Shown here: positions 669 to 779 of the stretch, piece by piece
Layout: every line of letters starts with the position of its first letter
How positions within the stretch are numbered: the stretch's first letter is position 1
Source of the DNA: a virus
Taxonomy: Duplodnaviria > Heunggongvirae > Uroviricota > Caudoviricetes
Strand: one strand, 5' to 3'
Virus record (IMG/VR): IMGVR_UViG_2778261459_000005
DNA: 4,590 nt
The notes under the pieces: model-generated
Seen by the model: only the letters and a program-made list of their open reading frames with translations
The model's database searches: none
What the model was told of the DNA's origin: nothing
Translations under genes and position numbers: made by a program

Positions 669-779
669 ATGCCCTCCATAGTAAACACGAATAAAAAAAT
701 ACAATATGTACTTTACGAATACAAGTAAAAATACACATTGTGCATGGATGGTTCCAGTACAAAGCGTAATAATAAGGAC
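669..779. promoter_or_regulatory. OR region: divergent pR/pRM promoters and CI/Cro operators built from TACA/TGTA-type inverted repeats
   Basis: 111-bp AT-rich intergenic region between divergent cro and cI. Contains TACA-ATA-TGTA (700-710), ATACAA hexamers at 699-704 and 719-724, and CACA-T-TGTG (734-742). A ~25-bp block is shared with the pL region (see the pR and pL features). Confidence 0.6.
696..724 (-). promoter_or_regulatory. Candidate pR: -35 TTGTAT (rc of 719-724), 17-bp spacer, -10 TATTTT (rc of 696-701)
   Basis: The minus strand reads TTGTAT-tcgtaaagtacatattg-TATTTT. The spacer is near-identical to the pL spacer ttgtaaagtacatatcg at 3018-3034. It lies ~28 nt upstream of the cro ATG. 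Confidence 0.5.

Follow-up and report, generated by a model that had tools for sequence, protein, structure and literature searches.

Introduction

In phages 434 and P22, Cro and the N-terminal domain of the repressor are homologous, all-alpha helix-turn-helix (HTH) domains, with near-identical recognition helices and shared operators. Cro of phage lambda has an alpha+beta fold, unlike a Cro of the HTH_3 family. The operators of 434 are 14 bp long (ACAA-N6-TTGT) and those of P22 are 18 bp long, and both differ from the sites described here.

The closest described immunity region is that of phage VT2-Sakai (Sp5). The six sites discussed in this paper are 'putative operator' features of its GenBank record, AP000422, and AP005153 likewise lists three of them. 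In two papers (PMC4587872, PMC10742460), the prediction of the operators is credited to Fattah et al. 2000. The same 17-mers were tested with lambda CI only, and showed micromolar apparent affinities (PMC9803871, PMC10742460; by EMSA in PMC10742460). In the searchable literature, which covers few subscription journals, no binding, footprint or reporter data were found with the cognate CI or Cro. The six predicted operators have been known at the level of prediction and annotation for about 25 years, and no new element is presented. What is added here is an independent statistical and comparative confirmation of their 17-bp register, and the finding that phage L shares both the motif and the spacing, as do prophages from several other genera. 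This immunity module controls the induction of Sakai-type Stx2a prophages and hence the release of Shiga toxin, which makes its operators medically relevant.

Overall organization of the immunity region

The window, which is the whole stretch of 4,590 bases that was analysed, is a lambdoid immunity region in the orientation opposite to that of the usual lambda map, based on open reading frames (ORFs) and Pfam matches (Table 1). The layout is that of a lambdoid switch: the cI and cro genes are divergent around a short intergenic region, cro is followed by cII, and N lies on the far side of OL. The genes had been assigned correctly in a preliminary description of this DNA. HTH_3 is found in Cro, and HTH_3 and Peptidase_S24 are found in CI, while CII, the N peptide and SieB are also recognised by Pfam.

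Table 1. Coordinates of genes, promoters and predicted operators in the window
Feature	Position	Strand	Sequence or elements	Basis and remarks
cII	15-311	-		ORF; Pfam Phage_CII
cro	453-668	-	71 aa (incl. stop)	ORF; Pfam HTH_3, E = 4e-12
OR	669-779			Intergenic between cro and cI
pR	696-724	-	-35 TTGTAT (719-724), 17-bp spacer, -10 TATTTT (696-701)	Annotation from AP000422, AP005153
OR1 (predicted)	697-713, centre 705		AAATACAATATGTACTT	Best consensus match; annotated operator of VT2-Sakai identical
OR2 (predicted)	729-745, centre 737		AAATACACATTGTGCAT	Weakest site; annotated in VT2-Sakai, identical
pRM (inferred, weak)	745-773	+	-35 TGGATG (745-750), -10 AATAAT (768-773)	Annotation from AP000422
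OR3 (predicted)	755-771, centre 763		CAGTACAAAGCGTAATA	Annotated site of VT2-Sakai differs by one base
cI	780-1439	+	219 aa from ATG 780, or 217 aa from ATG 786	HTH_3 + Peptidase_S24
Two cargo genes	1486-2792	+		ORFs; Pfam
OL/pL	about 2960-3045
OL3 (predicted)	2965-2981, centre 2973		AAATACAAAACGTTATA	Two bases off the VT2-Sakai site; conserved block in alignment
OL2 (predicted)	2998-3014, centre 3006		TACAACAAATTGTATTG	1-2 bases off the VT2-Sakai site
pL	3012-3040	+	-35 TTGATC (3012-3017), 17-bp spacer, -10 TACTAT (3035-3040)	Annotation from AP000422
OL1 (predicted)	3023-3039, centre 3031		AAGTACATATCGTACTA	Annotated site of VT2-Sakai identical
N	3230-3502	+		ORF; Pfam N_peptide
sieB	3519-4100	-		ORF; Pfam SieB
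DUF2528 gene	4361 onward	+		ORF; Pfam

The cro-OR-cI stretch has 98-99.7% identity to 64 phage records, including VT2-Sakai, the Stx1-converting phage and Stx2 phage II (strain Morioka V526), 2851, 1717, the PA series, ev207 and PhiR63_2. H-19B is absent from these 64 records with the same OR. OR and the start of cI are 98.2% identical to VT2-Sakai at the DNA level. Near-full-length copies of the window are prophages in a few complete E. coli genomes. Judged by the match of its repressor, Cro and predicted operator sequences, the window belongs to the VT2-Sakai (Sp5) immunity group.

The two cargo genes overlap and are located between cI and a terminator, at the position of rexA/rexB in lambda. 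They encode a DUF6978-like protein (180 aa) and a DUF1828 protein (258 aa), and match the PADLOC defence-candidate pair PDC-M24A (E = 4e-4) and PDC-M24B (E = 5e-7). They are probably prophage-encoded anti-phage genes that are expressed with cI. Relatives carry other cargo at the same place, for example a gene with an NYN domain in 2B8.

The last 77 bases of the window (4514-4590) are the outside end of IS10 (CTGATGAATCCCCTAATGATTTTGG...), and the insertion interrupts the DUF2528 gene. Matches of the window to phages and to E. coli all end at 4510-4513, and more than 3,000 plasmids contain a match to the IS10 stretch. Rfam detects the antisense RNA of IS10, RNA-OUT, in truncated form at 4559-4590 on the minus strand (E = 4e-4).

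Several other regulatory elements are recognisable. There is a strong terminator hairpin on the plus strand at 39-66 (within 1-77 of the window), which we take to match the terminator of the lambda oop RNA. The sequence TTGC-N6-TTGT at 289-302, inside the start of cII, corresponds to the CII binding site and pRE annotated in VT2-Sakai. An inverted repeat of 23 nt (87% matched) between 393-415 on the minus strand and 3113-3135 on the plus strand corresponds to the boxB hairpins of nutR and nutL. The two hairpins read TCGCT-GAAA-AGCGA and TGGCT-GAAA-AGCCA, and their stems are related by a compensatory exchange of C-G for G-C. A boxA-like CGCTCTTT is found upstream of each boxB, and 'N-utilization' sites are annotated at the corresponding places in VT2-Sakai.

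Six predicted operators of one 17-bp type

The predicted operator unit is the 17-bp sequence AARTACAA-N-TTGTAYTT, with the core TACA-N3-TGTA, and three copies each are present in OR and OL. The 12 half-sites give the consensus aARTACAa, with positions 5 (A) and 6 (C) being invariant. Measured between centres, the OR1-OR2 distance is 32 bp and OR2-OR3 is 26 bp, and in OL the OL1-OL2 distance is 25 bp and OL2-OL3 is 33 bp.

With up to one mismatch, TACANNNTGTA (TACA-N3-TGTA) has 8 occurrences in the window, compared to 2.0 expected. None of 200 shuffles reaches 8, and five of the eight matches are inside OR or OL. This pattern also comes out on top (p = 1.6e-5) when no prior choice is made, among 2,560 palindromic patterns (all palindromes with 4-bp arms and gaps of 0-9). 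GTAC-N5-GTAC, AGTA-N7-TACT and ACAA-N1-TTGT rank high as well, and their centres coincide with those of the 17-mers. A palindrome search restricted to OR and OL had been suggested in the preliminary description. Generic palindromes with 4-bp arms are at the chance level of dinucleotide shuffles there (3 in OR compared to 2.96 expected, and 5 in OL compared to 4.2), and a list of palindromes is no evidence by itself.

The sites in OR and OL predict each other. With a matrix built from the OR sites alone, the three OL sites rank 1-3 among about 4,500 positions of the window. With a matrix built from the OL sites alone, OR1 and OR3 rank first and second, while OR2 is not among the top 8. Moreover, an inverted repeat of 23 nt (87% complementary) is formed between 694-716 in OR and 3020-3042 in OL, and consists of OR1/OL1 and the adjoining promoter spacer. 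A block of about 25 bp had been described as shared between the two regions and as forming the spacer of both pR and pL. This block is real and inverted, although slightly shorter than stated, and it covers the spacer as well as the -10 of both promoters, as seen in the OR/OL alignment and the inverted repeat.

Two further places were considered. A fourth operator in the 15-bp gap between OR1 and OR2 was rejected. The gap contains only a lone ATACAA (719-724) that resembles a half-site, and that becomes ATGCAA in 2B8 and 720R6. It is the -35 of pR on the other strand, and not a paired half-site. An additional operator-like 17-mer, CATAACCAATTGTATTT, is located at 2851-2867, 114 bp upstream of OL3, and has one perfect half-site and one poor half-site. 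In each of the two cross-validation scans it comes just after the six sites, and phage 2B8 has it too. It may represent a fourth, weak site of OL or have arisen by chance. No Rfam family matches in OR or OL.

Promoters and the start of cI

In a consensus promoter scan, pR, pL and pRM are all below the threshold, with pR having 7 and pL having 8 of the 12 consensus positions. As the scan called none of them, the promoter assignments are based on transferred annotation and conservation, and the geometry of pRM was derived from the window sequence. In relatives, the hexamers of pR are closer to consensus (for example TATTAT in 720R6), and the -35 of pL is TTGACC or TTGACT. In the OR/OL alignment, pR is homologous to pL.

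OR1 overlaps the -10 and spacer of pR, and OL1 overlaps the same elements of pL. OL2 overlaps the -35 of pL by 3 bp, and OR3 overlaps the spacer and -10 of pRM. OR2 is located upstream of the -35 of pR and has no overlap with it. The centre of OR2 is about 42-43 bp upstream of the cI ATG at 780, and the predicted start of pRM is near A780 of this codon.

Translation of cI could start at either of two ATGs in the same frame, 780 or 786. Only the latter has a well-positioned Shine-Dalgarno-like sequence (AAGGA, 774-778), and the predicted pRM start is at 780. The cI start is placed at 786 in AP000422 and at an upstream ATG at 744 in AP005153. Transcripts from pRM might be leaderless from the AUG at 780, and those from pRE might be led by the Shine-Dalgarno sequence from the AUG at 786.

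CI and Cro proteins

Cro of the window is identical to that of VT2-Sakai (71 of 71 residues), and CI differs from its VT2-Sakai counterpart by one residue (216 of 217 identical). In its C-terminal domain, CI agrees with lambda CI at 135 of 136 positions, among them the motifs QAGMF, GNSM and FKKL. The domain is of the S24 autocleavage type, with the Ala-Gly site and the Ser/Lys dyad (Peptidase_S24, E = 1e-28).

Cro is, from its family matches, a small all-alpha HTH_3 protein of the XRE/434/P22 type and a paralogue of the N-terminal domain of CI. Four Pfam families match Cro at E <= 0.01, all of them HTH and none of them lambda-Cro. Cro and the N-terminal domain of CI have 35% identity over 62 aa (BLASTP, E = 8e-11). 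Together with the HTH_3 match of Cro (E = 4e-12), this agrees with the earlier comparison of the two proteins to the 434 and P22 pairs, rather than to lambda Cro. The closest solved chains to Cro are 28tn_A and then the N-terminal domain of P22 C2 (weak, E about 0.009).

Chain 28tn_A in the Protein Data Bank ('lambda repressor-like protein', 82 aa, 6 chains) has 49% identity to Cro (E = 4.5e-17). Its helix 3 is TAGAICHY, a variant that is seen with TATACA-type half-sites in prophages of Xenorhabdus, Kosakonia and Silvania.

Helices 2 and 3 are encoded by 564-632 in cro and 831-899 in cI. They had been described as almost identical in the two proteins, which holds for helix 3 (8 of 11 residues; TQGAIGHWESG is one of the two sequences compared) and not for helix 2 (4 of 10). 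Over the 23 residues quoted, 13 are identical. Among the first eight residues of helix 3, seven are identical, with the sequence TQG(A/G)IGHW. In a HMMER alignment to lambda CI, Glu21 and Glu25 of CI are equivalent to Glu34 and Asp38 of lambda CI. Cro has Thr16 and Lys20 at these positions, and thus does not have the acidic residues.

Conservation of the sites in relatives

The same six sites are found in each of four related E. coli phages, PhiR63_2, 2B8, 720R6 and phi458. In alignments of the E. coli phages, the changes fall in the central 3 bp and in the flanks, and the TACA/TGTA arms are kept. OR1 is conserved in the alignment of relatives, and the arms of OR2 are also conserved, with a variable centre in 720R6.

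A scan of viral contigs with the Cro alignment gave only loci with a 100%-identical Cro, and hence no diversity. More diverse relatives (16 loci) were obtained from a scan of species-level genomes with the same type of alignment. In Erwinia, Nicoletella and Phlomobacter, sites are located near -36, -70 and -96 from the cro ATG, and the outer two of these are found in Rahnella and Kosakonia. A pair of OL sites 25 bp apart is present in Erwinia, Rahnella, two Pseudomonas species, Kosakonia, Silvania and Actinobacillus. Most of the species-level relatives have either the OR-type positions or the 25-bp OL pair, and several have both. Motif, positions and spacing recur in phage L and in prophages of about a dozen other genera. 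As relatives were scanned with a matrix derived from the window, there is a bias toward similar sites, and the comparative evidence is strongest in the positions and spacings that recur.

Two of the distances are nearly constant. The OR2-OR3 distance is 25-26 bp, and the OR1-OR2 distance varies between 32 and 34 bp, in the E. coli phages, phage L, Erwinia, Nicoletella and Phlomobacter. The OL1-OL2 distance is 25 bp in the E. coli phages, phage L and Erwinia, and 46 bp in Phlomobacter. No OL pair was found in Nicoletella.

The half-sites vary together with the recognition helix. Helix 3 sequences of the type TQGAIGHW/Y are found with the half-site RTACA, TQGAIAHY with TTAC(G/A), T(A/K)GA(I/V)CHY with TATACA, and GQGRI(S/A)NY with ATCACA or ATAACA. 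Where a divergent repressor gene was found beside cro in relatives, the helices of Cro and CI change together, as would be expected if both proteins read the same sites.

In the Klebsiella phage phiKp_30 (LC768498, 900-1180), Cro differs by one residue and OR1 is present. The cI frame stops after about 30 codons, and OL2/OL1-like sites are located about 200 bp after OR1. This pattern suggests that cI has been deleted, and that the phage is a clear-plaque or virulent derivative from this immunity group.

Other readings of the sites

The idea of TACA/TGTA-type operators common to OR and OL, put forward in the preliminary description, is supported by the motif statistics, the OR/OL cross-validation, the conservation and the annotation of VT2-Sakai. 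Its individual strings are all present, with TACAATATGTA at 700, CACATTGTG at 734, TACAACAAATTGTA at 2998, TGTAAAGTACA at 3019, AGTACATATCGTACT at 3024, and ATACAA at 699 and 719 (also 2967). The operators might then be of these registers, namely 14-bp TACAA-N4-TTGTA, TGTA-AAG-TACA and CACA-T-TGTG, with mixed spacings and not of one 17-bp type, and the mild enrichment of ACAA-N1-TTGT would fit such a reading. We consider it highly improbable. Generic 4-bp palindromes are at chance, the enriched alternative patterns share their centres with the 17-mers, and the strings are lost in relatives while the TACA-N3-TGTA register stays. CACA-T-TGTG corresponds to OR2 with the register shifted by one base, and CACATTGTG changes to ACATCTTGTG in 720R6. 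TACAA-CAAA-TTGTA is OL2 out of register, and reads TAGAAC... in VT2-Sakai, 2B8 and 720R6 (three of the four other phages aligned). The TGTA-AAG stretch is AGTGAAG, AATAAAG or GATAAAG in relatives, and TGTA-AAG-TACA is neither conserved nor an operator.

The similarity between OR and OL might simply reflect common ancestry of pR and pL, as a duplicated promoter cassette that is uninformative on repressor binding. The 23-nt block does cover the promoter spacer and -10, and the OR/OL alignment also takes in the TTG of the -35 and some downstream bases. The motif, however, is also present at OR2, OR3, OL2 and OL3, which have non-equivalent positions relative to the promoters. Phage L and distant prophages, with diverged promoter and intergenic DNA, retain this motif, and the half-site variants track the variants of the recognition helix. 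Ancestry as the sole explanation has very little to recommend it in our judgment. Differences between the two proteins raise another possibility, that CI uses the six sites and Cro uses only one or a subset of them, or prefers a different half-site. Helix 2 and the residues after His-Trp differ between Cro and CI, and Cro from the telomere phage PY54 is reported to bind a single operator site (PMC4488713). Such a division is nonetheless quite unlikely here, as seven of the first eight residues of helix 3 are identical, and the helices of Cro and CI change together in relatives having a divergent repressor next to cro.

A predicted lambda-type switch

We conclude that the region very probably functions as a lambda-type lysis/lysogeny switch of the VT2-Sakai (Sp5) immunity group, with CI and Cro acting on the same six predicted operators. 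This assignment, made from sequence comparisons, is based on the promoter overlaps, the position of OR2 and the acidic residues of CI, which match the lambda scheme. Dimers of CI and of Cro would bind the same six 17-bp sites, with the TACA arms being read by near-identical recognition helices. CI at OR1 and OL1 (with OL2 touching the -35 of pL) would turn off transcription of cro and N. CI at OR2 would activate the weak pRM through the acidic patch in helix 2 (Glu21 and Glu25). A comparable distance upstream of the start is the position from which lambda CI activates pRM. As in lambda, transcription from pRM probably begins at the ATG at 780 or immediately beside it. As OR3 overlaps pRM, expression of cI would be shut off there by Cro, or by CI when its level is high. 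RecA-stimulated self-cleavage of the lambda-like C-terminal domain of CI would then lead to prophage induction.

The cooperativity scheme may differ from that of lambda, because the distance between OR1 and OR2 (32-34 bp) and the position of OR2, clear of the -35 of pR, are unlike those in lambda. If a lambda-type C-terminal domain prefers a distance of 25-26 bp, OR2 and OR3 would pair cooperatively. A switch wired unlike that of lambda, with OR2-OR3 and not OR1-OR2 as the cooperative pair in OR, is a rather unlikely arrangement. If it is correct, OR3 would fill together with OR2, and CI levels would be held low. A 'hair-trigger' design was proposed by the Koudelka laboratory for the Stx phages 933W and BAA2326 (PMC5977221), and would be extended to the commonest Stx2a immunity type. 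The cooperative pairing of the sites is the only part of this analysis with some potential for novelty. In addition, mixed CI oligomers could form in double lysogens, as the C-terminal domain is nearly identical in lambda CI. The repressors of 933W and BAA2326, which have been characterised, belong to other immunity types with different operators, and the work on them is not applicable to the sites of the window.

Comparison with known systems

The immunity region of the window is nearly the same as that of VT2-Sakai (AP000422). OR1, OR2 and OL1 are identical, OR3, OL2 and OL3 are 1-2 bases off, and the layout of pR, pRM and pL is the same. This immunity region is also present in the phages of AP005153/AP005154, 2851, 1717, YYZ-2008, the PA-series PST1 phages, ev207 and PhiR63_2. 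There are differences as well. The cargo between cI and OL in VT2-Sakai is H0093/H0092, compared to the DUF6978-like/DUF1828 pair here, and the interval from OL to N is only 92.5% identical. The window also carries sieB and closes in the IS10 end.

The record of VT2-Sakai names its Cro 'similar to bacteriophage L C2'. Salmonella phage L (MW013502; immC, c2-type) resembles the window in its recognition helices, TQGAIGHW in the repressor and TQGAIGHY in Cro. It also has 17-bp sites with TACA-N3-(T/C)GTA. There are three of them in OR, at spacings of 34 and 26, and in OL only two are above the threshold, at a spacing of 25. Unlike in the window, the C-terminal domain of the phage L repressor is not lambda-like. 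BLAST aligned only part of the coding region for the repressor N-terminal domain, at about 71%, and the intergenic DNA was unaligned.

The gene order is that of lambda, as is the arrangement of three plus three 17-bp operators over pR, pRM and pL, with OR2 at about -42 from the cI start. The operators themselves are of the TATCACCGC type in lambda, unlike those of the window. The spacing of the lambda operators is about 24/23 in OR and 24/20 in OL, compared to 32/26 and 25/33 here, and OR2 is clear of the -35 of pR in the window, unlike in lambda. There are about 19 residues before helix 2 in CI of the window, compared to 32 in lambda CI, which leaves little room for an N-terminal arm of the lambda type.

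The 434 and P22 pairs have low sequence identity to the proteins of the window. They are like them in having homologous HTH domains in Cro and repressor, with similar recognition helices.
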